Positions 7,251-60,279 are shown, numbered from the stretch's first letter. The stretch is 64,000 nucleotides of DNA from Sphagnum compactum (GCA_965153455.1 OZ234493.1:1302001-1366000), one strand, 5' to 3'. Numbers and translations: made by a program. Notes: generated from the sequence alone by a model not told the origin.

Positions 7251-8819
7251 CATCAATGATGATTTTTTAATGTAATGTAGTTTTTTTTGCCTTTTCATTA
7301 TGGGATTTTGTTTATGAGGTATTCAAGAACTATCCTTCCCAATTATAGGTAATTAATGTTATTGTTTTTAAAAAATAGAATGAAGCTTCTTAACGTGAAA
7401 GAGGGATAGGTAGGAGGTCCATTAGATAACAACAAAAGAAAAACTAATCAAGAGAGTATGGTAACAAAAGAAAAGATAATCAAGAGAGTATGGTTTGATC
7501 ATGAGCACATAGTGCATGATCTTTGGTTACTAATCTAGGTCAAAACAAAATTTTAAATTCATACCTAAACACAAAAGCGATTTGTTATATGGATATGAAC
7601 TGAAAGTCCCATCCAATGAACTTACATTGTGGGTCAAAATAGAACTTGTAAAATTAGCATTGGTAAATCTTGACCTTGCAGTGAAATTGCAAACATAAAT
7701 CTCTCCCTCACAGGCTAATTTGATCCATGTGTGCACGACTCCCACAAGGGACATTTTGCAATGCAAGATTAGTACTTTTCCACATTTACGAACTTTTGTG
7801 TGTTTATGTAATCTAGCTCCTCATTAATATGAATATGGATTGCATTTTGAAAGAGTTGGTTCAAGTATTCAAACATTCTTATAACTCGTTTTTTACACCA
7901 TGTTCTTCAAATCCATTGTTGCTTTTCTTGTGTTTCTTCACATGTGCATAAATCCATGAAGATATCTCTTTTGAACTCTTTCAATAGTGAAAATGACCTT
8001 CCAAAGCTTAGATCTCTAAAGGTTTTAGGCCAAACATTGAGATTCATTTCATGCAGACATTTTTCAAAATCTTTTTTTTCCATTGACTATAATGTTCATG
8101 GTTCAACTACATGTTTAGGTCATCAAGCAAGGTGTGAATGCAAGTTTTGGAATACCTCTTCTAACTAGGGTTTCTATGTGAAGGGTAGCTTTAATTAAGA
8201 TTTGGACAATAAGGTTGGTATGGTGGCCACATAGGCTATATTCCCGATACTTGGCTTGAATAACTGGTGGCCTCAAGCTAGTTACTATAGGCATAATCTA
8301 TAGAATTGAAAAAATCTCTTTTCATCCATGAAGAGAGCGATTATTACATTTTCATCCAATAAGCGATAAGGTTTCAAGATCATTGGGCTAATGAGAGACT
8401 TTTGTACCTTGTGCTGAGTAGTGGGTCACTAATGAAACGATGGTCAGAGGCTTATCGTTTGTAACTTGTGACCTAATAGCCAATCAGGGTGTCGAGATTC
8501 TCATTATGGTCGATTACAGATTACATAACCAACAAGAGGGCACTGGTTAATGGACATAACTGGTGACCTTTACATCCATAACCTGTGCAATAGGTGGATG
8601 TGGACAGAACCTACTTCTCCGCACTTTTCATTCACAAGCAGCCTGAAATACATGAGCTTTAATATGTGAGACCTGATTGGGGACATGGAGGTCCAATCAG
8701 AAAAAGACACGTCAGCCCATGGAGCTGGTTTTTTGATACCCAAATACCCAAAGACAGAGCTGGTTCCATTGGGCACACCCCCAAATGAGCAAATCAGCTG
8801 TGGGTGTACCTTACCACTC

Positions 8820-9112: not shown

Positions 9113-9807
9113 CATCATCTTCTGTCTTCTGTCACCAGCTTCAGCTTCAGCTTTTTTTTGTTGTGGAGCCTGACCAGGTTAGCCTAGAGGCATGATGAGG
9201 CAGAAAAAGCCTGCTCTCAGGAGTTTTTCCCAGCTTTCACTGCCACTGCAAAATGCCAGAAGGTAAGGGTAGGGTAGGGTAGGCAACTAGTGTCAAAGGA
9301 AATTGTCAATGCTTTTGGCACATTCAAGCTTATGGGTTTTGTAACAACAACCATCACTAGCCTAGCCTAGCCTAGCCTAGCTTGGGATCCACATTCAATG
9401 GCTCATTTTGGCCAGCCACTTGATTCAGGGAATCAGCATCACCACCACCCACAGCAACATGAAGTTTTTGTCTTTGCATCTGAGAATGGGATTATTCCAG
9501 AATTCAATGATGAGGGTGGTGGTGCAGGTTTAGTAGTAGTAGTACATGGAAACACTAGACCTCTATATAGATAGCCAAATTAACCAAATTAGGTAAATTA
9601 CAAATATTATAATTAAAGGACAGTATGTACTATGTACATTGGAATTTTTTGAAATAAATAAATATCTTAAATTAATTTAAAATGTCTTTTACATTTTTGA
9701 AACTAAAAGACATCCCAACATGATTTGTAATTGTGAAATCAACTTTCCCATGGAACTCTTTCACACTCCTTGAGTACCTTAAGAGCTCATAGATAGACTT
9801 TGGGTCG

Positions 9808-16650: not shown

Positions 16651-17486
16651 GAATACGGAGAGAGGGAAGGAGGAATGCGCAAGCGCCCTGCTCTCCTTCT
16701 CCTTCTTCTTCTTCTTCTTCTGTGTTTTCTGTCTTTCTTGTTGTTGGTGTCAGCGGAAGGAACGGAGGATGTGCATGTAATTTGTCCGCATGAAAAAGAA
16801 CAACGACGACAACTAAGTGGGAAGGCTGAGAGAGAGACGCTTTGAACTGTTGGAAAGGCTGTGAAATGCTGTGAAATGTGGAAGAAGAAGAACAAGTGCA
16901 ACATAGAAAAAAGCCTCACTAGAAAGTAACTTGAGAGATTGTGGCAAGTAAGAAAGTGTAGTTCGCTCACTCAACCATGGGCTGGTGCTCTCACAGAGAG
17001 AGAGAGAGAGAGAGAGGTGAAGTGCAGGTGATGTGGAATGAGTTGTGAACGTTGGTCAAGAACTTCAGAGTCACTGAGTTGTGATAACCATGTATGCTTT
17101 TTTTCTCTACAAAAAGCTCTTGGCGACAAGCCTGCCTGCCTGTATTCGAAGTTAATGGAGCAGCTTTAACTTCCAGTCCAGGTGAGCTACAGAAAATCAA
17201 GCACGTCTTGTTCTTCTCTCTCTCTCATGGACACACTGCATTTGCCCTCCTGGACAGCAGCTCCCAACTTCTAAGTTAGAAGCTGATCGGCAGCCACAGC
17301 TGCTGCACAGCTTGTCATCATGTAGTAGTAGAAGAAGAAGCAACAACAACAACAACACTCGGAGGAGCGTTTGATCCGTCACACATTATGAGGAGAACAA
17401 TGCAGAAGAAGAAGAAGAAGCTTCTCCTTCTCACATGTAGTAGAAGCAGCAGCAGCAGCAGCAGCAGCTTCTTCTTCCTCTGGGCA

Positions 17487-20400
17487 ATGGGTCTTGTTTG
17501 CTTCTTCTTCTTCTTCTTCTCTATGTTGCCAATGTCGGTGAGGGGGGCATCATCATCATCAGATGCCCAGCTGCTTCTACAGTTCAAGGCAGGAATAGTG
17601 GAGCTGGGAGCTTCACAAGTGCTAGCTGATTCTTGGGTAGCAGAGAATGTGGACTCTGCAGGTTGTCCTCAAGGATGGTACGGTGTCACCTTCTCCAACC
17701 CTGGCTGCAACGTGGTTGCTCTGTCTCTCCCGGGCCTCTCGCTCTCTGGAGAGATCAAACAGTACACACTAGGGAGCCTCTCTCACCTCAATTCTCTCTC
17801 CCTTGCTCTCAATTCTCTTAATGGGTCTCTTCCTGCGGATATTGGAGCCCTCTCCCAGCTGCAATCCTTGGACCTCTCCAACAACCACCTTGCAGGTACC
17901 ATACCCCAGAGCTTTGCCAATCTGCAGAGCTTGGTGAACCTGTCACTAGCCAACAATGTTCTGCTTTCAGGAAGTATTGTCTCTGTTCTTGAGCTTCCAG
18001 AGCTGGTTTCTCTCAATCTTTCGGGCAATGCCTTGACTGAAGGGCTTGCTTTCAGTGACAATCTTGTCGAACAAGCGAAGCTGGTGACACTTGACCTCAG
18101 CAACAACCAACTGTCAGGCTCCATTGATCCTCTTCTCACATGGCTCCCTTCCCTTGCTTTCCTCAACTTATCTGGGAATGCCTTCTCCGGCACCATTCCT
18201 CCAGAATTTGGGCAGTGCTGTACCACGCTCATGGCATTGGATTTGAGCAACAATGGATTGACAGGTCCCATTCCCACCATGGATCTTATGGAATCTCTTG
18301 TTTCACTCCGCCTTGCCGGCAATGGCCTCAGCAGCTCTGTTCCTTCTCAACTCTTGAATGACCTTGCTCCTCTTCTTCAAGAACTGGATCTCAGCAGCAA
18401 CAAGCTCACAGGTAGGTGATCAATGGATGGTGCCACCCACCTTTCCCTGTTTCTTTCTTTGGTTCCACCCTTTTGTCCCTTGCACGGCTTTCATATCAAG
18501 CATTCTTTGAGTACATACATACATCAAGCAGGTCTCGTGCCGGGTGGCTGTTGGGAGTTTTCTTTTTTCTTTTTTTGTTGTGGGTTTTGTGTGGCTATGG
18601 AGATTGATGGATTGGTTGGTTTTGCAGGTAGTCTGGAGCAGGTGACATCGAGCACCTTACAAGTATTGAATCTTTCATCCAATGAACTGGAAGGTGCACT
18701 CCCGAGCAGGCTCAAGTCATGTATGGTTGTAGATCTCAGCAGCAACTTGTTTTCAGGGGGGATTTCACTTGCAAGCTGGAGTCCTGGATTGGAGATCCTG
18801 GACCTGAGCCATAACCAGCTCAATGGTACACTTGATGATGAAGCTCTGATGCAGCCTTTTCGATTACAAGCTGTCGACTTGAGTTTCAACCAGCTCACAG
18901 GCTCCATCCCATTGAAGCTTCTTTCGTCACCCTCCATCTCTCAACTCAGCTTGTCAAACAATCAATTCTCCGGAGCTATTCTGATGCAACCGTTGGGAAC
19001 AACCGCAGCAGCAGCTCCTTCTCCTCCCCTTCGGTGGCTGGATCTCTCAACCAACAACTTATCTGGTCAAATCCCTGATGCGATTGCGAGCTATCCAAAC
19101 CTGGAAGCACTGCTTCTGGATGTAAATCAGCTCTCAGGAAGCATTCCAACACAACTTTCAAACTTGTCACTCCTTCGAGAACTTGATGTTTCCAGTAACT
19201 TGTTGACTGGTGCCATCCCTGCAGACCTTCCTGCCAGCCTCCACCTCTTGAACGTTTCGCACAACAATCTTTCTGGCACTCTTCCTCCAAATCTCATGAA
19301 GCTGTTCCCGAATGCGTCATTCTTTCCAGGAAATCCTAATCTGATGCTGCCGTTGACAAGTTCTTCTTCTGACCCAGGCATACAGGTAACACTGGGGAAC
19401 AGTAAGAAAAACTCAGGTTCAGTGATTCGAGTTGGACTCATAGGCGGATGCACAGTAGGTGCAGCACTCCTCATTGCAGCAGCCTTGCTTGTTGTTTACT
19501 TCCGCAACTCCTCCAATTACACAACTATCAAGACATCAGTAAAAGTGCCAACACCACTGCTGCCTCAGGATGCAAAAGCTGTCCCCCGTGATCTTCTTCA
19601 AATGGACTCAGTTCACCCAGAGACCATCCCAGCAATAGGCTTCGATTCTTCAAAGCCTCAGTATCATCATGACTCGGAGGCTTTGGATCTGCAAAAGAGT
19701 GCAGGAGATTCACCGATATGGACAAGGTTGCGATCAGCAGGAGGATTGCTATCTTCTGCTGCTGATGATAGCTCGTCTCTCTCATCAGAGCAGCATCAGA
19801 TGGTACTGAAAGTCCATTCACCTGATCGATTGGCAGGTGACCTTTTCTTTCTGGATGGCTCTTTACTGTTCACAGCTGAAGAGTTGTCACGTGCACCAGC
19901 TGAGGTTTTGGGTCGCAGCAGCCATGGCACCTCGTACAAAGCCACTCTCGATAACGGCCATGTGCTTACAGTCAAGTGGCTACGTGAAGGTCTTGCTAAA
20001 AACAAAAAGGACTTCACACGTGAAGCCAAGCGATTCGGTGGGATCAAGCATCCTCACGTGGTGCCGATGCGAGGATACTACTGGGGTCCTCGTGAGCACG
20101 AGAAGCTTTTGTTGTCGGATTATGTCAGCACAGGGAGCTTAGCAAGTCACTTGTATGAGAAGTCAGGTGGAGTGCGAACACATCCGACTCTGACTTGGGA
20201 GCAACGACTGCAAATTGCTATAGGTGTTGCTAGTGGGTTGACATACCTTCATGGGAAGCAAGGACTAGCACATGGCAATCTCAAAGCCAGTAATGTGTTA
20301 CTCCAGGGTCCACACTTACAGGCGCGGGTTGCTGATTACAGTCTTCATCGCCTCATGACGGCTGCAGGTACTGCCAACCATATCTTGAACGCAGGTGCTC

Positions 20401-20777
20401 TGGGCTACCGATCGCCTGAGCTGGCTGCCACTCGCAAACCCAAACCTTCACTTGCAGGTGATGTTTACGCTCTGGGTGTCATCCTCATGGAGCTTCTCAC
20501 TGGCAAGGGAGCTGGCGACATCATGTCTGGCAATTCTGGGGCTGTCGATTTGCCTGACTGGGTACGCCTCATGGCTTCTGAAGGACGACCTGTTGATTGC
20601 TTTGACCGAGCCCTCATTGGTCTTCATCGAGACCAAGAACCTCTGAAAGGAATGCACGAAGTGCTCAAAATTGCACTGTTGTGCATGTCTCCACATTCAA
20701 TGAGACCCAACATGCGAGTTGTATATGATCAACTCGTTGCACTCACTTCTTCTTCTTCTTCTTCTTCTTTTTCATGA
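17487..20777 (+). CDS. LRR receptor-like (pseudo)kinase, GHR1/SIRK1 (At4g20940/At5g10020)-like; exons 17487-18411 and 18628-20777
   Basis: Signal peptide MGLVCFFFFFFSMLPMSVRG (alternative in-frame ATG at 17388), LRR N-cap CPQGWYGVTF, many plant LRRs (LxxLDLSxNxLxGxIP), TM segment VGLIGGCTVGAALLIAAALLVVYF. Kinase domain has EELSRAPAEVLGRSSHGTSYKATL, LTVKWLREG and HGNLKASN. GT-AG intron 18412-18627 joins the two long ORFs in phase. Confidence 0.93.
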
Positions 20778-42400: not shown

Positions 42401-42771
42401 ATGTTTAATACAGGTAATTTTTTTAAATTTTATGTATTTAGAATACACGAAAGGCAAATGAACGAATGAAGTATTGGAGGAGGTCATCCATGTAAAAATG
42501 AAAATGAGACAACTTCAATCAAGGCAGGTAGTCAGATGAGAACCCAATTTAATAAATTCAAAGTAATAAATTCAATACAACTTTTTTTTAAAATTTTTTT
42601 TGGCTCTTGGATTATGCTGTGCATTTTGGTTAGACTAATCCAAGAGCCAAAAGTTGTTTTTAAAAAAAGTTTTATTGAATTTATTCTTATATGTAGAAAA
42701 TTTTGGGATTTTTCGTCATTAATTTTTAATGTAAAAAAATTAAATTAGTCACATCTAGACCTAGGCACTTC
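36477..42771. mobile_element. Decayed ~6.3-kb TIR DNA transposon (possibly PIF/Harbinger)
   Basis: 31-bp inverted termini gaagtgcctaggtctagatgtggctaattta (36477) and taaattagtcacatctagacctaggcacttc (ends 42771), one mismatch. Flanks are taa / caa. Interior is very AT-rich with no intact ORF. Confidence 0.6.
37743..38433. mobile_element. hAT-type non-autonomous element (691 bp) nested in the larger TIR element
   Basis: TIRs tagtgttgggcggatatc / gatatccacccaacacgg; perfect 8-bp TSD GTAGGAAC at 37735-37742 and 38434-38441; many subterminal GATATC motifs. Confidence 0.88.
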
Positions 42772-43439: not shown

Positions 43440-43935
43440 GGGTAAATTTGGTGTGAAATGGCTTCTTCTTGATCTGGCCCTAAAAGACTCTATATAACAA
43501 AAGTTGGGTTTACCCCTCCAACTGGGACCATGTTGTTGTTTTTTGGGCATTAAATGGATCCTTAATCTGGCCCTAAGGGACCCTACATAACAAAAGAGGG
43601 GTGTATCCATCTATCTAACTGGGACCCTGTTGTTTTTTGGGTGTGAAACGGCCTCTTTCTTGATCTGGTCCTAAGAGACCGTATATAGTAAGAGAGGGGT
43701 GTACCCATCTAGCTGGGACCATGTAGTTGTTTTTTGATGTTAAATGGCTCCTTTCTCGATCTGGTCCTAAGGGACCACATATAACAAGAGAGGGGTGTAC
43801 CCATCTAACTTGGACCATGTTGTTGTTTTTCGGCGTTAAATGGATCCTTTCCTGATCTGAGCCTCAGAGAAGAGACCGCATATAACAAAAGAGAGTGGTA
43901 CCCATCTAACTGGGACCATCATGTTGTTGTTGTTT
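43440..43935 (+). repeat. ~96-bp tandem repeat x5
   Basis: Unit gatctggccctaagggacc.catataacaagagaggggtgtacccatctaactgggaccatgttgttgtttt recurs near 43471, 43565, 43662, 43758 and 43854. Confidence 0.85.
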
Positions 43936-44661: not shown

Positions 44662-47600
44662 ATTGGAGCAAACAATATCCCTCATTTACAACAATAGAAG
44701 CATCCTTTTTCAATATTGACTGCCTCATTTAGAAAACAAAAAGGCTAATTTCTTTGTGAAAAATATTTCAAATTTTAGCAACCAAAAAAGTTCAAAATCA
44801 GTGAATTTTAGCACTTTGAATTTTAAAACTTGTCATAGTGTAAAATTTTGCACCAGAAAACAACCACTGGCTGGTGCTCCATTTCTTTAGCACTTCATCT
44901 ACTTCCTTGTAAGCCTCACCTGGTCTGTATCAGAATCATAATTTTGGACATTCATAGGATTCCTGTTCATAGGATTCATACAATGACAAATTGAGGGTTG
45001 GGATTCAGGGTAAGGGTGAACACTAACATTGTTCACTGACATTTTCCACTGCTCCAACAATAAGCAGGTTTGGTTAGAAGCTGGAAAGAGTTGGATGGGT
45101 ATTGGAGCTTTGGTGGATCTAGTTTGGATTGCAGCTTCAGGTCCATGTTTTAGTTGGGGATCAAGCAAATCATACGTTTATGGTTAGTGATTGCATTCCA
45201 TTATAGTAGGCAATCTTTCTGGTTTATTGAAAGCTGTGAGTATTGTATGTTACAGTATTTTATATTTTTTGACTCACCTTGGTGGTGTTTCCAGAGTTGG
45301 AATGTAGGTGGGGAAATTTTGGTGGTGTTTGTCCATAGTGTTAGGTTAAGTATGGAGTGTCTGTTGACAAGTAGGTTCATTAGAGTTAGCAAAGAGAGAT
45401 GTTATGCATTACTAAACGGATGCTCAACAGTAAAGAACTAACAAAGTTGCTCATATAATAACATGAACCAAAGATCAGGATTCGAGGACACCTAAGAGGA
45501 CAAAGTCCCAAACACCAAAAAAAACTAAAACCTTGTTCACATTGAACTGGGTTTCAACAACAAATAACTACACACACAAAATAAAACACTAATATTTTGC
45601 AATGAACACCTAATAGGGATTCTATGTCTAAGAGATGTCGTGTTGATCTCTTCTTCAGTTCAACATTGTGAACTATCAGCCTGACCTGACCTGTAAACAA
45701 GAAGAAACAATTTATGTCAGGTCAGGCTTTGCTTTTCTCCACCATCCCATGCTATGCTTACTAGTCTTTTATCTTTTAAAAAAATCTGCCAACAAACTGG
45801 TCCTTCTGCATTTTCCAAGTACATATCATCAGCTTCTGTGATTTTTTGCATTTGTTTTGAACATATTTTTGGAGGTGATGGAAAACAAAAGAGCATGTTT
45901 TACATCAAAGTATTTGGCAAAACAACTCATATCAACTCCAAAATCTACTCCAAGTAAGGTTATCGCTTTACCTTGACTTTTACTTTAGCATGGTAGTTTG
46001 CTTTGCAAAGTTGAAGAATGAGTACTAAACTACCATGCTAATGTAAAAGTGCAAAGTGGGCATTGCTCATTCTTCAACTTTTCTTAGGTCCTTGGTGCCA
46101 TATAGTGAAGTGCACAGCTGAAGCCTAAGAGTACTTAATAGTGTACTTTGAAAGACTTTTGGGCTTGTACCCAACTGTCTTGCTGGTGGTCTTTATACCC
46201 TTTCATGTGTTGTATTTCACAGAAAGTCATCAACAAGCCCAAGTACATGAATGACATGGTCATCAATTCGAGTCAGTCACAAACAGGCAGGGTGGAGCTT
46301 GTACCTACAAAACTTCATCAATGATAGAAAACTTGGGTGGTCAAATTATCCATTCATCCATTCATGCATTCCATTAGTCATTCATACATTTGTGCCTGAC
46401 GGTGTGAGTGGGTTGATTTGTTTTAATATTGGTTAATTAACTTGTTTCAAATTTTCTCCTCAATGAGAATTCACATGGTAATTAACTCCTAGGCCTATCG
46501 AGGTTGTCCCAACTATGGTCAAATGGATAAAATAAAAAGAGGCTCTCGGGTTGTGTTTAGGCAGCCTTTAGTTCATCAGTTCGTGTCAAGGATGTTCATT
46601 CACTTCCTTGTTCTTTTCTCTTTCTCTGCTTTGTTAGTTCTAGATCCATGGTAGGTTAAGCAAGATGTTGAGATAGATTCCTACTGACCTGGCTAAACAT
46701 TGAGCTGATGAAATCAAAACTCAACTAGGGAGTGAAAATAAATAAATACTTCGGTTGATGAACATGAGAGAAACAAAATATTAACCTAAAGCTCCACAAA
46801 ATGAATACCCTTGAAGATTACAAGGGCAAAGTAGAATGAGGAACAGAATCATGAAATCCTGGCAGGACTTATTAAAAGGATGAAGCTAGTGGGCAGCCCC
46901 AGCTACTAGTACACACCTTGGTACTAACAAGTCAGCCAAAGTCACCTCTGTGTGAAAGATGGGTTGGGCTGGCAATGGCTGCTAGCATTAAGTAACACTC
47001 CACACCAACTGTACAAACAGCAAACCATGCCCATCTCAGTTGATCAACTTTGCCAGACTCTGCACAGGACACTACCTATGCAGAGATGTTGTAAGACCCA
47101 AACAGAAAAGGCGTGTTGCAAAGTCATTGTGCTTTTTCTTCATTGTTTCCCAAATTTTATGGGATAAGAAACAGAGCTTTACTTGTCTCTAGCATGCAAG
47201 CTTTCTTTTTTACAAAATTAAAATTAAAATTATTAATTTTTAAATAAATTTTTAAAGAATGTAGTTGACATAGGTGGGCACTTTCATTGGTTGTACAATG
47301 CTAGTAATTAGAAAATTTTCAGTTTTGGGTATGCATAGGTTTCTACTGGATCTGGTGTCAAACCAGACCTGCCTGGGAATTTATTTTTTCCAAAACCCAT
47401 GAACCAAGAGTCTTGAAGAAAATTTAAGAACCAGGTTTGGAACTAGACCAGAGTTTCTATGGGATTAAAAAGATCCTTGAACCAGTACCAAGGGCTCTTT
47501 CAGATTAAAGAAAAAAGTTGGAACTAGGACTAAAGGTCCTCTTGTTGAAATATAAGAACTGGACAACATTGATATTGAAACTGATATAAAATTGGTACAA

Positions 47601-47874
47601 AGCTGATATTGCCTTGGGTGATAAGTCCCTATCAGCATTGCTCTAATATATAGGGTTTTGATGAACTCGGGTATGCACCTTGATATGTAAAACTGGAATC
47701 AATTGGTATGATTTTATGAAAACCCTAAGGCATACCTGAGGTTGACGTTTGCCTTGCCTCCATGGACACTACCATTGCACTTACCCATACCCATAGTTTT
47801 TCTCTTTTGAGATATTCTTATGCATATATGTTCTGTGAAAAATCTCTAAACCCCTCTCTAGTTGCATCCCCCTA

Positions 47875-48186
47875 TGTCATGCCCGTATGCACGGCCTCAT
47901 ACATGATGGTCAGCTACGGGCATGCCCATCATGTCTTTTGAGGGTTAATGTACGTTTGTAGGGTTAATGTGCGCTCATAAGTGACTGTACGCTATTAGGT
48001 ATTTAGGGTTTCAGCTTTGGTGGCTGTATAAAAGGGCCAAGCTCTACCCTTCTCCTTTAGTTTTTCTAGAATTCCTTTGTCAGGTGATTTCTCCATCATA
48101 AGCTAGGATTTCTAGATGCTCACGGCGGCCATTGCACGACCACCGTCTACATACATTTCATTTCTTTCTTGCTTTGCATTTACAAT
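47875..48186 (+). repeat. Terminal repeat A1 (312 bp)
   Basis: Matches 57038-57349 and 57527-57838 apart from three G/A differences seen by eye. Confidence 0.95.
48027..48033 (+). promoter_or_regulatory. Probable TATA box of the retrotransposon promoter
   Basis: TATAAAA within repeat A, 32 nt upstream of the predicted transcript start at 48059. Confidence 0.65.
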
Positions 48187-48198
48187 TCTAGAAAAACT
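48187..48198 (+). other. Putative self-priming primer-binding site
   Basis: tctagaaaaact lies immediately after A1 and is the exact reverse complement of agtttttctaga at 48059-48070; no TGG-type tRNA PBS is present. Confidence 0.75.
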
Positions 48199-48469
48199 CT
48201 ATTCCCTGTTGCTTCATGTTGAAAGCAACAGATTTCTTGTGCTTTTGAAATTCTTGAGTTGTTGCTACTCGTGTTGTTGCTGCCGGAAGGAGCGCGTTAC
48301 TACTGTTGCTACTGGTGTTGTTGGAGGGAGCTTTGCATTTCTTACAACCAACCAAGCAGGGACAAACGAAGTCAGGACATTAGAGATCAGGTGTCAAAAC
48401 TTCTCTCTTTCTCCCATTCTTTTTCTCTCTTCAAGTTGTCGAAAAAAAAAAAAAAAAAAAAACAAGAAT

Positions 48470-49235
48470 CGCGGCGGCGGCCGCTTGCCATCGCTGTAGA
48501 GCAGCGTAGCGCCGCCTGCCATCACTGCGCAGCAGCGAGCTCTAGCGCCGCAGGGCGTTGCGTTCCGCCGTTGCCGCAAGCTGCAACGTCGTAGCGCTGC
48601 AGCAGCACCGCCGTCGCAACAGCGCTGCATCAGCGCTCGCAGCAGCACCGCCGCAGCAAGAGCGCCGCGGCAGCACCGCCGTCGCAACAGCGCTGCACCA
48701 GCGCTCGCAGTAGCACCGCCGCAGCAAGAGCGCCGCGGCAGCACCGCCGCAGCGCCATCGCTGCACTAGCATTGCAGTGCCATCGCTGCCGTAGCGCTGC
48801 AGCGCCATCGCTGCAGCAGCGCCACAGCAACAGCGCCGCAGCGCCATCGCTGCAGCAACAATGCAGTGCCGCGGCAACATTCCAGCAGCGTCGCAACGTT
48901 GCGAGCTGCAACGCCATCGCTGCGACCTTGGTCCGTCCGACTTCCGTCGACGGTCGTCGGACTGTCCTGCGTCACTGCTGACGTCATCGTGCTGCCGTCC
49001 TGCCTGCGTCACTGCTGACGTCATCGTATTGTCATCCTGCTTGCGTCACTGCTGACGTCACCGTACTGCCGTCCTGCGTCACTGCTGACGTCATCGTGTT
49101 GCCGTCCTGCGTCCTGCCTACGTCATTGCTGACATCACCGTCCTGCCCGTCCTGCGCTTTGCCGTCCTACGTCCTGCCTACGTCACTGTTGACATCACCG
49201 TACTGCCGTCCTGCGTCCTACGTACTACTGTACTG
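48470..49235 (+). repeat. GC/CpG-rich tandem repeat arrays in the retrotransposon 5' leader
   Basis: gcagcaccgccg / agcgccatcgctgca units at about 48540-48925, then gtcactgctgacgtcatcgt units at about 48970-49200. Confidence 0.85.
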
Positions 49236-49422
49236 CAGTCCTGTTTCCTGTGTTCTTCGCACTGTGGTCGTGCATTGTGTGGTCTTGTGTCTTGTAGCTT
49301 ATCTTGCTGCATTCTGCCATATTATCGTCCTGCAATTAGGGATATTCAAACCATACATTGTGTTAGAATTTTGTAATTGAAGGATTATATTAGTACAAAA
49401 TTTTGGGGCATGGGACAACACC

Positions 49423-52400
49423 ATGTCCTCGGATGATGAAAGTAGCATTACTCATCCAGAGCCAAGGTATCAATTACGAAGTAACACACAACCCTTTGAA
49501 CCAATATCTTTGAGTTCACGATCCTCACGACGATACCACCAAGCATCCACAGCACCATCATCATCTAGTACAAGTCCTATTAAGAATTCAGGTTTGGGTT
49601 ACACTACATCAACAACACACCAGAGCCCATTTGGAGGGGTTAATCAGTGGGCTACACCTATTACTGCACCTGCTTTCACACCATCACCATATACTCCGTT
49701 GCAAGCTGTGACTTCAACACCCATATACACCATGGAGGTCAGCAGTTCCTCTGGGAGAATAGAGAAGTTCAGCGGAAGGCCAGGTACTATTTCGTTGAGG
49801 GAGTTCAAGGCAACTTTCTCAACAGTCTGTGAGTTGGAGCTGAAGTATGGTGCTAATTACACCGAAGCGTTTGCATTTAAGCAATTGGCCCGTTATGTGC
49901 ATTATGAGGCATTGGATGTCTACGAGCAACATTCTGCAAGGATTTTGGGTGTCACCCAAGCCCCCAATCCAGCTTACGCCATAGCCATCGCCACCGCCTC
50001 TCAAGCTGCAATTGCACATCACGGGACTGTGCCGAATAATCCAGACCCGGTACCTACCTCGGTAAACCTCTCTCCTTAAAAACTCATTGCTGCTACTGCA
50101 AACATTCCTCCCACCATTGATGCGCCAGCTTTTGTTGATCCAGTGGGGGAATTCTTTCGAATTCTTTAGCTGGAATTTCCAGTCAAAAGTTCTGAAAAAA
50201 TTCTGCAGCTCGCCACCTTCTCTCGGCAGAAGGATGAAACCCTCAAGATGCTTTACAGGAGGCTTCTCAAACTCAAAGAGGATACCCAGAGCATCACCGA
50301 CTTGGAAGCTGCCCATCGGTATCTTTGTTCTTTGGAAGGTACTCCAACACTCCACGCACAGGTTTTGCAACGAATCTTTGCAGAATTTGGAGACTCGTAC
50401 ACGTTGCTGGATGTGTACAACATTTCCGAAAAGCTAGAACTGGCTCATGCACATTATGAGGCCAGTACTATGAGGCCTCCATCACGTTCAAGGCCTCAAC
50501 CTACAACAGCTGCACCAACTAGATCATCACATTCTTCTTCAAGGACTAAAGCGGTGCACTCGGCTACACCCATCCTACCTTCTTGCAACTACTGTGGCAA
50601 TCCTGCCCACAAAGCTAGTGAGTGCAACATTCCTTCCGAGGATCTCTTTTGTGATTATTGTGGGAAAGAGGGACATCATGAATCTGTCTGTTTTGCCAAG
50701 TTCCCAGAGCGGAAGCAACTCCGGTTACAACGGCAAAATCTGCCAGCATCTTCCACTATCCCTCAACCAAAAGCCAAGGCACCTCAGCATTCCACTCAGG
50801 CTTTGCCCACCAAGGGTAATTCCAACAAGAATGCTAAGAAGAAGGAGCACAATGCTGATAAGAGGGAGGTGCTTCAAGCCCATGCAATTCAAGTTCAGAC
50901 TTTACAAAATGAACTCGAATCATTGAGGGCTCAACTTGCGAATCTAAAAGGCAAGTCCTCCCAATCAGCTAGTCATGCCCAACCTGTACAAGGTTCAGGA
51001 TCACGCGAGGGACCTCCTAGGTCGTTCTATGGCCTTCCACACGATGCAATGGTTGGGGAGTATGTTCTTTCCACTCCACACAATTCTAGTCTCACACCAG
51101 AATTGGCTACTTCTTTTTGCCCTTCCTTTGTCGCAGCACAAGAAGCTAGTGTGGCACCCAGAGTTTCTGCCACTAGGCAGGTAATTCAGACTGATGGACT
51201 CGCATCTGGTTCAAGTCCTATTACCAGGGCTAGAGGAGCTCGAGCAGTCATGCCACAATCTTTTCGTCCTCTCAACATGGAAGAAGAAGGCACCTTGTTG
51301 GCGAGGGGGGAGGAGACTACTACACCACAAGTTGTTAGGGCATCAAATTCTCATGTCCCAGGAGTACATGTACATCAGGAAAACACACAATTTTCCACTG
51401 ATCAGCTTATGGAATGCCAACTTCAAATGCATGAAGTGGCGCAAAAGCTTGTGAGTACACCATTGTTTAGTTTTCAAGATTTGAAGCTAAGCACCAGGGA
51501 CATAATTGCAATCTTAGAGGATACCTTGAACACTACATCAAGTCCTCTACCAACCCCTAATCCACATGCTACAGAGGTCCCATCCAACACCTTGGAGAGA
51601 CATTCGATTGGTTCACGTGTTGCAGATGGCGTTCGTAATCTAGTCACTAGTTCTGGCATGGCTAAACTAGTGAGCTTTCCTACCTCTGATGCTACATTCA
51701 CATATCAGAAGGGAGTTAAGAACACCTCACTTGTGGATTTGTTACTCAGCAAAGGCGTTGTGGATAGCCATTCTCTCCACAAAGTCTCTCATTCATTTCC
51801 GAAGGTGGTGCCTAGTGAGAGAACTTCCATCGCCACCGGAGTTGCCATTGTCGACAATACTAAGTCAGCAATCCAGGTGGGAGGACATACACCCAGAGTG
51901 GTTCTTCTTGATACAGGTGCCCAACCAGTGATTCTTGGAGTTCAATTCGCCAAGAAGATGGGCATGTTCGACTCCAAACTACGAAAATCTATGTGGCACA
52001 TTCGCACCGCTAGTGGGAGCGTAGAGGAGGTACTTGGGGAGAGCTCGGATTTTATTGCACTTAATTTCAATGAAGGTACAGATCAGGAGCTTTGCTTACA
52101 GGTCAGATGTTTAGTCACCAATGCCACAAGTTATGATGTGCTCATTGGGCAAGAGGCCCTGTTTCCACCAGGTTTTACAATTGACAATTGGTTCGAACAT
52201 GCGTACTACCGAGTGGATTGGGAGACTGATGGCCACCACCTGGGATACATACCCCTTGATTTACATGGGAACCATAGTCCTATGGCTCACCATTGTATGC
52301 TCAAGGAAGCACACACCATTTCCTACATCCAACAAGCTAGCCACGAATGGATAGAGGGAGATGAAGAGGAGATAGCTTACGCTCAAGCTACTGAAAGCTT

Positions 52401-55400
52401 GAGGGTGGTTCCTACTGACATTCAACATGGACCAGAGGTTTTACAAAGGTTCAAAGTAGCCTACAAGCCCTTGGTCAAAGCTTTGTCTAGTTTTGAAAGC
52501 ATGGAGAGCCATGGCGAACCGATTAAGCCATTACTCCGTCAGCTAATCACTTGGACACCACCTAAGGAAGGGATTACATTACTAGAGCTCTTTGGTGGTA
52601 TTGGTACAGGTCTCGAAGCCCTACTACAGTCAGGGATGGTGGTCCGAAGGTATTTCTACGTAGACATTGATCCTATTGCAAGGCAAGTGGCAGCATCGAG
52701 AATGATGGAGCTCACAACCAGATTTCCACAACAGTTTACAACCACTGCATGGAAGGCCAGTTTCACTTTCTTGCCCCCTGACATACAATTAATTCAGAAT
52801 AAGCATATGGAATTACTTGGCCCCGTGGACCTCATCATTTCAGGTTGGGAGTGTCAAGGATTTTCAGCAACTGGATTTGGAGAAGGCTTGAGTGACACAA
52901 GATCCGGTCTCTTCACGGACGTGGTACGATTGATTACCTGGGCTCAATCCATTTCCCCTACGCTTGGTTATGTAATTGAGAACACCCCTTCTCAGCTTGA
53001 CCAGAGGGAGAAAGTCCAGGAGCACTACACACTTGTCAAACATTACCTTGGAGAGCCACTCCTACTCGATGCGGCACAATGCGGTTCCTATGCGCACCGG
53101 TTGCGCAACTGGTGGACCAACCTTGCACCACTTTCAATTCTGCAGTTGGCTCTGAGATACACCATCAGAGACCACAACCTGCAGGTTTCTCACATATTGG
53201 ATGATCAGAGCTCTTGCCAACCAGTTACAAGGCAAGAGAAACCTCCTTGGTTTCCTGCGAATACGATAGGAAAACCAAGAGGTGCTTGGCCCACCTTTGT
53301 CTCCTTCCCTGGAGCACACGCCTTTCAGGGAGATGGACCAGGCTTGGTGTATCGTCATGCTTCAGCCACTTGGGATGAACCAAGCCCAGAAGAAAGAGAA
53401 AGGGCTATGGGGTTCCAAACTGGCACTACTAGTCACACCAAGGTGACTAGATTGGAGCGTAACGCTCTACTCGGGAGAAGCATGGACCTGAACTCCCTTA
53501 CATGGTTATTGGTAACCTGTGTACTCTTTCAAATGTACACAACACCAACACTGACTCAATCAGCTTGCAGCTCTGACGATGCAACCACATGGCACCCCGA
53601 CCAAGTACACTTGCCTATCTTCAACACTCTACATTTCACTCTCAGTGTTGGGGGGGAGGAGGTACCATGTAATTTGACTCAAGTTATGTCCAATACACCT
53701 GGAGGTACATCAGCTTCTGGAGAAACAATTACAACCTTCTACGAATCTACGGAGTTGGATAATGGAAAACCCAATACATCAGGTTCTTCAAACACACTTT
53801 CCAACTCCATTCCATGTGTTTCCAACTACCCTTTTGTTATGGGGAACCAGCTCACCAAGAAGGAGAGAGACCAGGTCACAGACTTGCTAATTAAGTATGA
53901 GAATGTGTTCGCATTCTCAATGAAAGACTTAGGTAGGTGTAAGACCATGCAGTTCTCTATAGACCTTACAGATGAGACACCCGTTTATCGAAGGAGGCAT
54001 AGGTTGAGCAAACATGAATGGGAATTGGTAGATGAAAGATGCAAAGAGCTCCATGAGGCCGGTCTCATTCAGCCATCAAGTTCTGATTTCGCAGCCGCTA
54101 CAGTAATGCCAGCAAAGAAGGATTCAGCTGGATTATGGACTGAGAAAAGGATGTGCGGGGATTATAGGCCTTTGAACCTGGTTACACCTCAGGACAGGTA
54201 CCCCATGCCCATCCCTGAAGAACTGTTTGATAGCATTGGAGACTCAAACATCTTCACAATTGTGGATCTGAGGCAAGGCTTCAACCAGATTGTGCTCGTT
54301 GCAAAAGATCGCAAGAAAACAGCATTCCATGGAAGCAATAAGTTGTGGGAATGGCTTGTGATGCCTTTTGGATTGAAGAATGCACCTGTCTTCTTTCAAC
54401 GAGTCATGGACCAGGTTCTCGAAGGGGCAGATTTCCTGAAATGCTACATAGATGATGTCCTAGTGCATAGCAAGGGACTCCTACATCACTTGGCTCATCT
54501 TGAGGAGTTATTCAAGAGGCTCCACGAAGTCAATATGAAGATCCATCCTAAAAAGTGTGAGTTTGCTGTCACCTCAGTAGTTTACCTTGGACACAGAATT
54601 TTGCCAAATGGTATTATGGCTCATTGGGCCAAAGTAGTAGCCATTTTGGAGATGCCCGATCCTACTGATGTTCACACTTTGAGGAGCTTCATCGGACTAT
54701 GTAATTACTACAGGATTTATGTCCAAGACTTCAGTACTATTGCTCATCCTCTCTATGCATTGTTAAAGAAGGATGTTGCTTGGACATGGAGTGAAGAGGC
54801 TCGGGAAGCTTTCAACACACTCAAGGAAAAGCTTTCAGAGTTTCTGAGAAGACCTGATTTCAGCAAGGTCTTCATTCTACACACTGACTGGAGTGCTCTT
54901 GGTATTGGAGTTATTCTTGGCCAACTTGATGAGGAAGGCAAGGAATATGTTATCGCCTATGCATCTCGAAGCAACAACAAGGCTGAGAGCAACTACTCTT
55001 CATACGAGGGGGAGTGCCTTGCTGTTGTATGGGCCGTCATACATTTCAGGCCCTATCTTTATGGCACCAATTTCACTCTGTATACGGACCACCAGCCTAT
55101 CAAGTGGTTGATGACCAACGATAAGCTTACTGGTAAGTTAGCTCGTTGGGCGCTGATACTTCAAGAGTATGAGTTCAAGGTTATTCACCGACCAGGTATT
55201 ACACATCAGAATGCAGATACCATGTCACGAAGACCCCTCACTACCTCTGAAGATTTTTCAGAAGCCAGGCAAGATTTTGACCAGATCCCAGCAATACATG
55301 TATCTGAGGCATCTAGTTATCTTGCATTACTGCAATGTAACCTGGTTGAGCATCCCATTCTGGATATATGGGAGGACTTGGACACTCTGGGGTTTCTTCA

Positions 55401-56811
55401 ACATGGGGAATACCCTCCCCAAGTTACATCAAGTCAGCGGGATCGCATACAACAGCAATCCAAACGCTACTCATGGAGGGACAATCACCTCGTCCGATGC
55501 TTACCACAAGGCGACAGAGTGGTTCCACCACCACATGAACGCCCTGGTCTTATTCAGAAGGTACACTCGGAGTTTGGACATTTTGGAGTTAAGCGTACTT
55601 ATAGCCTTATCGCTCCTCATTACCATTGGAGAGGTATGTATGCTCAAGTCCGAGACGTCATTGCTAGGTGTGAACAATGTGATAGAGTGAGAACTTCCTT
55701 CTCCTCTCGACAGCTCACTCTTTCTCCACTACCTATTCAGGGCATGTTCTATCGCTGGTCATGTGATTTAGCTGGAGAATTACCACAGACCTCCAGGGGT
55801 AATGTCTACATCATGATTATGATTGAACATTTTTCAAAGTGGGTCGAACTTGTTGCGCTACCGGACAAGTCATCACACAGCACTAGCCAGGCTTTCTTAC
55901 AACAGGTTCTAAGTAGGTTTGGGGCTTGTGCTGAGTGCCTTACTGATCAAGGATCAGAATTCAGGGGAGAATTCCAAGACCTACTTGACCATGCTCTCAT
56001 TGACCATCGTCGGACTTCAAGAGATCATCCCCAAGCTGATGGCCTTGCAGAAAGGATGGTTCAAACATGCAAGAAGGGTCTTCGGAAGATTTGCCTCACT
56101 AAGAACAAAGAGGATTGGGACCTGGCCCTCTCTTACATCGCCATGGGTTACAGGATGTCCAAACACGCCTCTTTATCTCATTTCTCCCCTTACTTTTTAC
56201 TTTTTGGGAGACATCCCATTCCACCCTCTTCCATTGCTGCTCAAATGGACCAAGTTGTGGACTTGGACTCCCCAACCATTTGGGCTAAGGTCATTGCAGA
56301 AAGGGCCGCTCTATTCAGGAGGGTTATGCCCATGGCCATGGAAAACCTGTCCATTGCACAACATCGAGACACCTTACGGTATGCACACACACGAGGTGGT
56401 AGTTACAAACCTAAGGTGAGACAATTTGATGTTGGTGATTTTGTGTATTTTCAGCGACAACCCAATGATACTTTAGACACTTCTTCCGGTCGCACCATCT
56501 TGAGGATTAAGGCGATCAGGCCTTCAGGTGTGTTGGAGCTACAAGGAGCTGACGGACGCACAATTCGGGATCATTCCAAAAATTGTGCGCCTTGCCACCT
56601 GCCAAACTTGGACCCTACCATCAGCACATCGACTTGGATTCCTCCACTTGATTATCCATGTCAGGTATGTCAGAGGATGGACGATGCTGATCAGATGCTG
56701 CTTTGCGACAACTGTAATGGTGGATACCATCTCTTCTGCCTCAAGCCGGAGCTCACTCAAGTTCCCGTTGGCAATTGGTACTGTTCATCATGTTCTCCTA
56801 CAGCACCTTGA
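49423..56811 (+). CDS. Gag-Pol polyprotein (gag, two Zn knuckles, aspartic protease, C5-DNA methyltransferase, RT, RNase H, integrase, PHD), interrupted by in-frame stops at 50077-50079 and 50167-50169
   Basis: ORFs 49423-50079 and 50248-56811 share a frame. Motifs: CNYCGNPAHKASEC, CDYCGKEGHHESVC, LLDTGA, RMCGDYRPLN, MPFGLKNAP, YIDDVLV, FILHTDWS, YTDHQPI, HSEFGH..CEQC, WSCDLAG / LTDQGSEF / DGLAERMVQ (D,D,E triad). Confidence 0.93.
52573..53511 (+). other. DNMT3-like C5 cytosine methyltransferase domain within pol
   Basis: Motif I LELFGGIG, II VDID, IV DLIISGWECQGFS, VI VIENT, VIII DAAQCGSYAHRLRNWWTNL, IX ERERAMGF, X RNALLGRSM. Confidence 0.9.
56659..56793 (+). other. PHD finger (C4HC3) at the integrase C-terminus
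   Basis: CQVCQRMDDADQMLLCDNCNGGYHLFCLKPELTQVPVGNWYCSSC. Confidence 0.93.
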
Positions 56812-56852
56812 TTCCTACTCAGACCATGCCATGCTTTTCCCGGCTCAGGTCT

Positions 56853-56860
56853 GGGGGGGG
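56853..56860 (+). other. Polypurine tract (G8) directly before repeat B1
   Basis: ctgggggggg|atacatgaga; the G run abuts the first base of the 3' repeat array. Confidence 0.7.
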
Positions 56861-58013
56861 ATACATGAGAATTTCATCTCAGTCTCATGTGTGCATTGTA
56901 TATATATGTGTGCATGTATCTCTTTTTAGTTGATTAGTTTATATCTTTGACTGGCTTTAGTCTTTTTGTTTAGTAGAGTTTCTTATGAATGTACACCTTA
57001 CGACACTGTATGTCACGACACTACACGTCACGACAGCTGTCATGCCCGTATGCACGGCCTCATACATGATGGTCGGCTACGGGCATGCCCATCATGTCTT
57101 TTGAGGGTTAATGTACGTTTGTAGGGTTAATGTGCGCTCATAAGTGACTGTACGCTATTAGGTATTTAGGGTTTCAGCTTTGGTGGCTGTATAAAAGGGC
57201 CAAGCTCTGCCCTTCTCCTTTAGTTTTTCTAGAATTCCTTTGTCAGGTGATTTCTCCATCATAAGCTAAGATTTCTAGATGCTCACGGCGGCCATTGCAC
57301 GACCACCGTCTACATACATTTCATTTCTTTCTTGCTTTGCATTTACAATATACATGAGAATTTCATCTCAGTCTCATGTGTGCATTGTATATATATGTGT
57401 GCATGTATCTCTTTTTAGTTGATTAGTTTATATCTTTGACTGGCTTTAGTCTTTTTGTTTAGTAGAGTTTCTTATGAATGTACACCTTACGACACTGTAT
57501 GTCACGACACTACACGTCACGACAGCTGTCATGCCCGTATGCACGGCCTCATACATGATGGTCGGCTACGGGCATGCCCATCATGTCTTTTGAGGGTTAA
57601 TGTACGTTTGTAGGGTTAATGTGCGCTCATAAGTGACTGTACGCTATTAGGTATTTAGGGTTTCAGCTTTGGTGGCTGTATAAAAGGGCCAAGCTCTGCC
57701 CTTCTCCTTTAGTTTTTCTAGAATTCCTTTGTCAGGTGATTTCTCCATCATAAGCTAAGATTTCTAGATGCTCACGGCGGCCATTGCACGACCACCGTCT
57801 ACATACATTTCATTTCTTTCTTGCTTTGCATTTACAATATACATGAGAATTTCATCTCAGTCTCATGTGTGCATTGTATATATATGTGTGCATGTATCTC
57901 TTTTTAGTTGATTAGTTTATATCTTTGACTGGCTTTAGTCTTTTTGTTTAGTAGAGTTTCTTATGAATGTACACCTTACGACACTGTATGTCACGACACT
58001 ACACGTCACGACA
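56861..58013 (+). repeat. 3' terminal repeat array: B1 (56861-57035), gc, A2 (57038-57349), B2 (57350-57524), gc, A3 (57527-57838), B3 (57839-58013)
   Basis: 489-bp periodicity; the copies look identical by eye. Confidence 0.95.
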
Positions 58014-60279
58014 CCTATCTTCCTCATTTTGTGTGTGTGTGTGTTTTTTTCAGGGAAACAAATGGAAAAATTCATTGCAAAGAAATATTTTTAGTGCGTT
58101 TTGAATGGTTAAAACATAATGGGTGCGCCAACTAGGGCTTTATAAAATTTCTTTGTATTCCAAAAGGCAAATACGCAACAATCAAAGATCTTAAACTTGA
58201 AATCCTATTGTGTTTTAATTCACCTGTCACTGAACACTGTACCCATTATACCGAACACCTCATATCTTGTCCATTCCTTTATTGAATTGAGATATTTTTG
58301 CAGTGTTGGGCAGCGCTAGGTGGAGGGCTAAGATACCTACCTACTTTGCACAACAAAGCACAAGTTGTTGCCCACAACATAATTTAATGAGTGTCTCTAC
58401 CATGGAAAACTAGAGGTGAATAATGAAAGTTTGAAGATCATAGCAAAATCATGCCCAATAAAGAAATATAGGCTCTAGCACGCCAAACAAGCAAAATCAA
58501 TATGCAGCAGATTGGAGACAATAAGAGTATAATTGCTTACTTTTTGCAAGAATGACAGAAGTCCATAGTCCATACAATATTACCCCATACCTGGGATCCT
58601 GAAATGAGTAGCAAGGGAATGAATAATTAATTGCTAAGTTGCTCCTCACTAATCCATACACCAATGTGCAATGAGTAGCAGCAAATGTAAAGCACAAGCA
58701 GAACATTTCAGTATATTTGGAGGACACACTATCAAGTGAAATCTGTCACCATGTACATGTACACCAAGAGTACCCTTGCACACATTATACCCAAGATTGC
58801 TTTTTCATTTGACAAAACCCAATTGCTCTTGTCAAAGGATAGGAAACGCTAGTGTGCGACCATAGTGTTTTTGTGTGCAAGGATAGGGAACAACAGTGCG
58901 ATGATGGGGGAATTGGTGTGTGATGTTAGAGGATTCGCAACAAATAGGTCCCTTTACTCTACACCAGATTACACTTGTGTTTGATTGAGGTCAACAAACA
59001 TCATGATCCTATTCCAGCATTGGTGTTTTTTCTTCATAAAACCAAGGATATGGGCTTGCCTGCAATGGTCTACTTTATCTTCAGAGGAGCCCATCAATTG
59101 CATCTGGATTCTGGATGCATTAGGTTCTCTGAAATTGATTTTTATTGTTATCATGGTTGTTGCAATGTGTACTTTCAAGGTTGACCCCAATTGCTACTTG
59201 CCTACCATTTGAAAATTTAGTACAAACCAGTGTTGGTCTAGTATCAAAGAATATTACCTATATAGCAGGCTGGTATGGTCTTCAATACCTTGTCAATGCC
59301 AGGCATAAGCCTATACACCAGAGCACTGAATTATTTGGTGGTGAGTTTTTGCCATTTTATCATTTTCTTTCTTTTTTGGTTCAAATGAAAAAAATCATTG
59401 CAAAGAAAAAGGCTTTTAAAAATATTTTGAAAACAGAATATTTGATCACCAATTCTCTTTTTTGAAAACAATTGCCAAAAATTGTCACAACTGCCTACAA
59501 CATGAAAAAGGCATTTCAGATCCTTTTTACATTCATAATCTGAACTAGTGTGTAACTTGTGCCGTTTGGCCCAAGTGTGAACACATTCTTTATTTTTCAC
59601 ATTTTCAGAATTGAAAATTTCTAAATTCAACAATGTGAACACATTGAGGGCTCAACTGATTTTTCCTCCTAAACCCAATTTTTGAAATTTGTTTGAATTT
59701 CCAGCAACAAAATCCACTCAAAAAGTCAATATCTTCCACACCTTAGCTCCAAAATTTGTGAATAAACTTTGAGCATTCCGAAGATACCAAGAGCACAGCA
59801 TGAAGCACTCTGGTTTGGGAGATCCCAGCATGACAAAACAAAACAAAACAAAACAAACTACAAAAGATGTCACAAAATTTGGCTAAATATTCTTATGGAT
59901 GATTGCCAATTGAGCAACATCACAAAATTGGGAAAGAAAAAACATTGTACCAGAGTTCAGGCAAACACTTACACAAACTCCAATTGTGCCCATCATTTTG
60001 GGCTTACCAAACCTCCTTTTTTTGGGCATACAAAACCTTTAATCTTCGTAGAAATTAGGGCATGTTTGGGCATCACCTGTACATCATCATTTTTGTTTTT
60101 CAAGATTATGCAGCCAAATTGGGAAGGCTCTCAAATGTGCAATGTGTGGTGGATTGAATGTTTTTCCTTAGTCAATGGCCAACAAGAGTGTTTGTGCAAT
60201 TATACAATTAGGTAACCGGTGAGAGCATGCAAGTAACCAGTGTGCTCAAGCGAGTCGCTGGACATAAGCATCCCTTGTG

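Follow-up and report, generated by a model that had tools for sequence, protein, structure and literature searches.

How does a retrotransposon prime its reverse transcription when its 5' repeat is followed by no recognisable binding site for a transfer RNA (tRNA), and how does an element with an integrase come to resemble one with a recombinase? Both questions are raised by a 10.1-kb element at 47875-58013 in a 64,000-nt stretch of Sphagnum compactum DNA (GCA_965153455.1 OZ234493.1:1302001-1366000), here called the window, whose coordinates are used throughout; the features described lie on the + strand, except for a palindrome to which no strand is assigned. It is a retrotransposon of Ty3/gypsy type that encodes a DDE integrase and belongs to the Gypsy-DNMT3 kind, which carries a C5-DNA methyltransferase (DNMT), and its repeats are laid out as A1-internal-B1-A2-B2-A3-B3. 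A first-pass annotation had proposed that it primes minus-strand synthesis with the start of its own RNA, as Tf1 of Schizosaccharomyces pombe does, and that its long terminal repeats (LTRs) are permuted. We regard self-priming as the best explanation of the observations presented here, and as a likely one.

Repeat A1 (47875-48186, 312 nt, TGTCATG...ACAAT) forms the left end of the integrated element and contains both a TATA box (TATAAAA, 48027-48033) and the predicted RNA start. Beginning 32 nt after the first base of this box, 48059-48073 (AGTTTTTCTAGAATT) is the exact 15-nt reverse complement of 48184-48198 (AATTCTAGAAAAACT), as had been claimed and as the sequence confirms, and the bases that flank the match do not pair at either end. 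Positions 48184-48186 are the last three bases of A1, and 48187-48198 (TCTAGAAAAACT), the first 12 bases past it, represent the proposed self-primer binding site. The proposed self-primer would be the first 12 nt of the RNA (48059-48070), with all 15 nt of 48059-48073 able to pair and the pairing reaching 3 nt into A. Within the window the 15-mer of 48059 occurs three times, once in each A copy, while its complement occurs a single time, straddling the end of A1. The bases after A1 are thus exactly complementary to A and adjoin it; that their partner is the RNA 5' end rests on its offset from the TATA box and on the limit of the pairing. As a measure of the chance level, a 12-mer whose perfect reverse complement lies at most 350 nt upstream begins at 106 of 63,638 window positions (0.17%). 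The probability of such a match arising by chance at the single position set by the repeat boundary is small, yet not negligible in this AT-rich DNA, i.e. a chance match is unlikely but not impossible.

To place these features in a wider context we scanned metagenome contigs, which yielded 80 related loci, most of them belonging to the same family as the window element at 69-93% protein identity and two (L055 and L075) standing at ~47%. The window and nine independent family 5' ends were aligned, and the TATAAAA box is present in all ten. The claim that no tRNA-type primer-binding site with TGG follows A1 holds for the window, where the first TGG downstream lies at 48313, 127 nt beyond A1, and largely for the family: TGG is missing from the aligned stretch after A in nine of the ten 5' ends, the tenth having gained it by a point change within the 12-mer. 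This check for TGG constitutes the whole comparison of the primer site with tRNA 3' ends. No tRNA genes were found in the 64-kb window or in 41 related loci, and an Rfam scan of 47500-48700 gave nothing at gathering score. Priming at 48187-48198 might be due to a host RNA that is not a tRNA 3' end, such as an internal tRNA fragment or another small RNA, the match to A then being secondary. Such a primer would have precedents, given that half-tRNA primers are used by some LTR elements according to the available portion of Neumann et al. 2019 (PMC6317226). However, the site differs completely among the distant lineages described below, and yet in each it matches that element's A, at an offset of about 30 nt from the TATA box wherever such a box is present; this counts against a host primer, because a shared one would keep the site constant, and we consider this explanation improbable.

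The strongest single argument for a minus-strand start at 48187-48198 is provided by the junctions between the repeats. A1 and A2 diverge exactly at 48186/48187, and in both A|B junctions of the window the last A base, as at 48186, is fused to the base that follows the G8 run (56853-56860), the proposed polypurine tract for plus-strand priming located directly 5' of B1. A survey of the window and the 80 family loci identified 94 B starts, all at the same base: 64 of them lie behind a G-run (43 distinct contexts), 27 lie behind an A end (18 distinct contexts), and the other 3 are degenerate or unclear. The usual A end at these A|B junctions is ...AAT, whose last base is the one preceding TCTAGAAAAACT after A1; a few junctions are 1-3 bases off. 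An A|B junction unites the final base in front of the proposed primer site with the base that directly follows the proposed polypurine tract, and thus the two ends expected of a linear complementary DNA (cDNA). This is what the earlier claim that a primer site of about 12 nt marks the cDNA end had implied. The A end and the B start accordingly read like two linear-cDNA ends, and the reverse-transcribed LTR would be B+A, as the permuted-LTR idea requires. Some A|B junctions (examples lie at L070 1784, L071 3483 and L018 4881) carry 1-3 extra bases past the usual A end (e.g. ...CAATTC), and in others the terminal AT is missing, a heterogeneity that would be expected if primers were removed imprecisely at a cDNA end.

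The pairing is retained within the family. In the alignment of ten 5' ends, standard pairs occupy 92.9% of 141 pair cells; shifting the 3' partner by 1-3 columns lowers this to 39-61%, and the pairing is kept across copies that are 15-27% divergent in A. One copy (L065, identical to L066) pairs at 15 of 15 positions, with one A:T pair in place of G:C, and another (L054, identical to L080) shows 13 Watson-Crick and 2 G-U pairs. L015 and L036 have one mismatch each, L043 and L033 one or two mismatches plus a G-U pair, and in L024, L051 and L077 the pairing is degraded. Among 48 rows anchored on the TATA box, the 15-mer is found at +32 in 37; the commonest 15-mer is the window's own (10 rows), and 3 of the 48 rows are spurious matches. 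In those old copies in which A1 and A2 are both readable (L015, L036 and L033/L045), every mismatch is a change in only one copy of the segment, these changes being transitions apart from one T deleted in the A2 of L033. Because each mismatch is confined to one segment copy, we infer that the pairing was complete when these elements inserted. None of the contig variants listed lies within either pairing segment, though absence of variation cannot be claimed from those listed. The family is abundant, its contig depth being in the thousands versus ~35-100 in the flank, and moss metagenomes are among the sequencing runs that contain the element. Differences between family copies at 47400-48440 are dominated by C>T and G>A (53 and 48 of 196 listed places in run X11), a pattern that decay of methylated DNA would be expected to produce; the element itself codes for a cytosine methyltransferase.

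More distant relatives came from a scan of genome contigs, which returned L081-L087, eukaryotic contigs binned into prokaryote assemblies, at 38-54% identity. Viral contigs contained no relative, and the source assemblies of L081-L087 yielded no further copies beyond the contigs already found. The repeats of L055, of L081/L082 and of L083 contain no sequence alignable with the window repeats. The self-complementary arrangement recurs in these three distant lineages with different sequences, directly after A in two of them and with a TATA-box offset of about 30 in two. L055 (47% protein identity) is arranged as A1...B1-A2-B2, with GACA-AT-TGTC as its junction sequence, a G-run ahead of B1 and TCTC as its target duplication. 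The first 12 nt after its A1, ACTCAAAGAACT, match AGTTCTTTAAGT in A2 at 11 of 12 positions, and the A2 site begins 32 nt after TATAAA; with at most one mismatch allowed, such 12-mers start at 8 of 11,317 positions of this locus. L075 was considered as a separate lineage and rejected, as it has the same 3' end as L055. L081, which like L082 stands at 38-54% protein identity, has a G-run, a palindrome (CACGACAGCTGTCACG) and, at 7210, a TATA-like box; a perfect 13-nt match between 7239-7251 and 7415-7427 starts 29 nt after this box. The A end is set here by a comparison of two contigs, L082 switching from A to B within 1 nt of the start of the L081 match. L083 (47%) has a G-run, a perfect 16-nt palindrome and a perfect 12-nt match between 4711-4722 and 5061-5072 inside A. 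The 12-mer background is 3 of 8923 positions in L081, two of them this site, and 2 of 7049 in L083, one of them this site. The primer-site sequences of the lineages, TCTAGAAAAACT, ACTCAAAGAACT, ACTTGACAAAGAT and TTCTATAAGAAC, are completely different from one another.

These data bear on the simplest rival explanation, that the complementarity is a functionless chance inverted repeat in AT-rich, low-complexity DNA. The background frequency of 0.17% in the window and the non-significant covariation within the family (see below) are compatible with it. However, the site lies at the sole position set by the repeat boundary, its partner lies at TATA+32, and the arrangement is kept across the diverged family copies and recurs in three unrelated repeat sequences. 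The evidence already argues strongly against chance, which we consider very improbable.

Two side observations concern the local context of the putative RNA 5' segment in the distant lineages. At L081 7228-7255, L082 2591-2618 and L055 ~10655-10683 this segment is the right arm of a local hairpin, which the 5' repeat of L055 has lost as a 29-nt piece. In L081/L082 and L055 the left arm of the hairpin is similar to the primer site and is located immediately 5' of the predicted RNA start. Only the 3' copy within the RNA would therefore include this arm, which could mask that copy. As to the contigs themselves, the 9285-nt contig L081, from a cyanobacterial bin, is a whole element of the clade assembled as a circle, with an exact 127-nt overlap (1-127 and 9159-9285). 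Similar eukaryotic retrotransposon contigs are found in bins assigned to Mollicutes, Halorubrum, Halanaerobiaceae and Minisyncoccia and are bin contamination.

Several observations weigh against self-priming or limit its reach. The first-pass annotation had suggested looking for compensatory changes between the two segments in relatives. Pairing does recur with different sequences in three distant lineages, but covariation within the family is not above chance, 266 of 500 shuffles reaching the observed score, and the only pair with both sides changed (2 cells) also has 4 unpaired cells. We count the both-side change in L065 as conservation, not covariation, because the shuffle control is flat and both changes are transitions of the common decay type. 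At least one non-Watson-Crick pair is present in eight of the nine other independent 5' ends, among which L024, L051 and L077 are badly degraded, and all family loci, including those that supply these nine 5' ends, have broken frames (longest open reading frame at most 397 aa). The window copy, although young, is probably not autonomous either, because gag is interrupted by two in-frame stops (50077-50079 and 50167-50169), at which 20 of 22 and 22 of 22 aligned relatives have sense codons. Among the distant lineages, the A1 of L055, a dead copy, is without the 29-nt piece that bears the complementary segment. The A end of L083 is not independently fixed. L084 has a G-run and a palindrome but no clear long-range complement, and the L087 contig ends at the palindrome, before A. 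An RNA start at or near 48059 is predicted from the sequence, the public RNA data, like all four runs compared, being contigs, which cannot show ends. A 152-nt contig of the RNA run X15 covering exactly 48059-48209 was considered as a mark of this start and rejected as graph branching, because breaks at 48057-48059 occur in the DNA contigs of X14 and X2 as well, and RNA and DNA contigs alike end at 48076.

A further point against priming concerns the matching segment itself. It includes TTCTAGAA, which is self-complementary; this leaves the statistical weight of the match unchanged, yet permits other pairings, so that dimerisation or another fold could take the place of priming. The pairing could thus represent a selected RNA stem-loop that closes a leader derived from A and serves packaging, dimerisation via TTCTAGAA, translation control or strand transfer. 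In line with this possibility, the 15-bp duplex is kept in both the minimum-energy and the centroid structure of the RNA at 48059-48215 (z = -2.05), both arms are conserved, and the upstream arm also takes part in the local hairpins of L055 and L081/L082. On the other hand, the duplex abuts, to the base, the cDNA end recorded in the A|B junctions. A stem-loop would have no structural reason to abut the A end in the three lineages in which that end is fixed (in the fourth the match lies inside A), and no other candidate primer site is found, TGG being absent for 127 nt. We therefore rate a stem-loop without a priming role as unlikely, although less so than a host primer, and favour self-priming.

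At the left end of the inserted DNA, all 13 family 5' ends, nine of them independent, begin at the same TGTCATG with unrelated DNA upstream, and B precedes A in none of the nine. The right end of the element is always ...GACA, the end of B. The integrated copy is thus bounded by A only on the left and by B on the right, and not by two equal LTRs, while canonical Ty3/gypsy features are present in the form of TGTCATG...CACGACA ends, a CCTA/CCTA duplication and the G8 run before B1. Exact 4-bp target duplications flank five of six two-ended copies, namely CCTA (window, 47871-47874 and 58014-58017, directly outside the TG...CA ends), ATGT (L015), TATT (L036), ATAA (L077) and TCTC (L055); in the sixth copy, L024, TTTA and TCTA agree at three of four bases. 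These results sustain the permuted-LTR claim of the earlier annotation. No tyrosine recombinase domain (PF00589 or similar) was detected in the polyprotein or in five upstream frames, and this, together with the 4-bp duplications, fits a DDE integrase. Insertion is of the integrase type, the inserted DNA having A at its start and B at its end. We rejected truncation of the 5' LTR of an ordinary element, because the independent 5' ends all share one start base and target duplications occur, and we rejected an endogenous pararetrovirus in view of the integrase and the target duplications. Among 59 loci with sufficient room, the 3' forms are B only in 31, B-A-B in 20 and B-A followed by other DNA in 8. 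The B-only forms could result from collapse of the B-A-B loop in short-read assembly or from B1-B2 recombination, and these counts are not used as evidence.

In the window, the 3' part of the element comprises B1 (56861-57037, 175 nt ending GACA plus a 2-nt spacer GC), A2 (57038-57349), B2 (57350-57526, starting at the A2|B2 junction described above), A3 (57527-57838) and B3 (57839-58013), which ends GACA and forms the right end of the integrated element. A1 is 99% identical to A2 and A3 (3 of 312 sites differ), whereas A2 equals A3 and B1 equals B2. The third A-B unit therefore looks like a later tandem duplication of a 489-nt unit, which it probably is. A palindrome, GACAGCTGTC, lies at the B1|A2 junction (57032-57041) and recurs at 57521-57530; its halves are the two ends of the integrated element, and it looks like an integrase recognition site. 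The corresponding GACA-NN-TGTC is also found at B|A in L055, L081/L082, L083 and L084, and in L087 it is cut off by the contig end. G-runs before B are likewise present in L055, L081, L083, L084 and L087.

Taken together, these features suggest the following mechanism. The RNA would start in A at 48059 or close to it, some 32 nt past the TATA box, and its first 12 nt would fold back onto 48187-48198, directly past A1, in keeping with the retention of this duplex in the computed fold. A cut after base 12 would leave a 3'-OH, from which the reverse transcriptase could copy A to the RNA 5' end, as in Tf1. The resulting strong-stop DNA would then transfer to the A copy near the RNA 3' end (A2), and plus-strand priming at the G-run before B would yield a product with a B+A LTR at both ends, of which the genomic copy would be a circular permutation. 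If the integrase acted at GACA-NN-TGTC, that is at B|A in the middle of this LTR, the insert would begin with A, end with B and acquire a 4-bp duplication. In this arrangement the palindrome would represent the two ends of the inserted DNA joined via a 2-nt spacer, and cuts after each CA would produce recessed CA-3'-OH ends with 2-nt 5' overhangs, on which integrases usually act. The extra A-B may be gained by template switching, from a concatemer or via a 2-LTR circle. Random cutting of such a circle predicts A-B-A at the 5' end too, which is seen at none of the nine independent 5' ends.

On this basis we put forward, tentatively and with chances that we judge to fall a little short of even, a wider proposal: a whole clade of Ty3/gypsy elements with a DDE integrase, spread over mosses, charophytes and green algae and often with DNMT and PHD domains, would not integrate the ends of its linear cDNA. 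Instead, the integrase would cut GACA-NN-TGTC inside the self-primed B+A LTR, probably on circular, concatemeric or template-switched cDNA. If true, cutting at this site would give processed CA ends, the 4-bp duplication and the DIRS-like arrangement A...B-A-B, and would represent a convergent, integrase-based route to split direct repeats that have so far been tied to tyrosine recombinases. The palindrome, common to lineages at 38-54% protein identity, would then mark where the element opens on insertion.

The coding region agrees with a placement among the Gypsy-DNMT3 elements. The gag-pol frame (49733-56811) starts with the gag ATG at 49733 and encodes gag CCHC knuckles, protease, DNMT, reverse transcriptase, RNase H, an integrase with zinc-binding domain and DDE core, and a PHD finger, in this order. 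Pfam matches PF00145, PF00078, PF17917, PF00665 and PF17921 all fall within one open frame of 2213 codons (50170-56811), with the PHD finger at residues 2164-2208, and no chromodomain is detected by Pfam in the element polyprotein up to E 0.01. The nearest named protein matches are from Closterium, Klebsormidium, Haematococcus and animal elements. In related polyproteins (P0004, P0078 and P0036, compared with P0033, P0050 and P0044) the DNMT occupies two different places: it is located between protease and reverse transcriptase in the window, Klebsormidium and Closterium, whereas in P0033 and P0050 it follows RNase H and precedes the integrase. At this latter place, P0044 of Haematococcus has ~600 residues without assignment, and it gives no DNMT match. 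The two positions suggest separate captures or domain shuffling.

Compared to known systems, the element resembles Tf1 and Tf2 of S. pombe (Tf1/sushi) in that a tRNA primer site is lacking and the RNA can fold back. In Tf1, ~11 nt just after the 5' repeat are complementary to the start of its own RNA, where 12 nt are proposed for the moss element, and both the RNase H cut and the RNA start are known experimentally, whereas in the moss element the two are deduced. A chromodomain is the hallmark of the Tf1/sushi chromoviruses. The element instead has a PHD finger and no chromodomain, carries a DNMT in pol, and its repeats are split and permuted in place of two equal LTRs. The Tf1 likeness put forward by the first-pass annotation thus stands as an analogy of mechanism and falls as a statement of clade membership. 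Self-priming has further been predicted for the Tcn1 clade, i.e. chromoviruses of mosses and club-mosses, and for TAR Ty1/copia elements in the available portion of PMC6317226. These elements, too, are plant LTR elements without a tRNA-type primer-binding site, mosses included, but they are ordinary two-LTR elements, with chromodomains in Tcn1, and the terms PHD and methyltransferase are absent from the text of that paper.

With respect to repeat layout, the element resembles the DIRS, Ngaro and PAT-like elements, which show A1-internal-B1-A2-B2 with an internal B|A junction that repeats the joined element ends. It differs from them in having a DDE integrase (rve and zinc-binding domain), no tyrosine recombinase, and 4-bp target duplications; to our knowledge, tyrosine-recombinase elements make no target duplications. 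A close counterpart is KnitGypsy-Dnmt3 of Klebsormidium nitens, which shares the DNMT within the Gypsy pol frame, the A-coding-B-A-B layout and the order DNMT-RT-RH-INT. The K. nitens protein KFL_009030040 (P0078) matches query residues 780-1700 with 39% identity, an E value of 2.5e-174 and 90% coverage. The host of the present element is a moss-type plant and not a charophyte, and the window copy has one extra A-B unit. DNMT in pol, repeat layout and polyprotein relationship all place the element with the Gypsy-DNMT3 elements. In the accessible part of de Mendoza et al. 2018 (PMC5890265), KnitGypsy-Dnmt3 is described as a Gypsy element with Dnmt3 in pol, whose A-coding-B-A-B repeats are 'the same as that of a DIRS retrotransposon'; the main text, to the extent accessible, contains neither 'primer binding' nor a mechanism for the repeats.

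For the proposed cleavage of the palindrome, a parallel is found in retroviruses, whose integrases are able to cleave the palindrome formed where the two LTRs of a 2-LTR circle meet, as reported in the available text on foamy virus (PMC1180852) and HIV-1 (PMC1905944). In both cases a palindrome of two joined CA/TG ends would be converted by a DDE integrase into integration-ready ends. The retroviral palindrome exists only in circles and belongs to a side or salvage route, whereas that of the moss element is internal and fixed, has a 2-nt spacer and is apparently the regular site. Self-priming is known from Tf1/sushi and predicted for some plant elements, and the DIRS-like repeats of Gypsy-DNMT3 elements were published in 2018 as an unexplained oddity. 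A literature search found no paper linking self-priming with Gypsy retrotransposons that carry a DNA methyltransferase. The present analysis adds the primer site, the way in which it agrees with the junctions, and a palindrome conserved between lineages, which together provide the first concrete mechanism for the split repeats of Gypsy-DNMT3 elements and turn a descriptive puzzle into a testable one.

Further observations concern the remaining parts of the element and of the window. The leader between the primer site and gag (48199-49732, 1.5 kb) is GC-rich, with short tandem repeat families (D3, D5, D6 and D8, ~48480-49230), and is open in several frames on both strands; Pfam gave no match in five plus-strand leader frames. 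Similar GC-rich repeats follow A in L083 and are found at both ends of the L087 contig. Outside the element, a leucine-rich-repeat (LRR) receptor-like kinase lies at 17280-20777 (+) in two adjoining frames of 379 and 785 aa, separated by one stop at 18417-18419; a sequencing error, an intron or decay to a pseudogene could account for it. The stretch 43443-43931 is made up of about five tandem units (D4 and D7), each ~96 nt long and 66-87% alike. At 42565-42685, an AT-rich inverted repeat (I1) with 50-nt arms, 88% complementary and 21 nt apart, may be a small foldback element or one resembling a miniature inverted-repeat transposable element (MITE).

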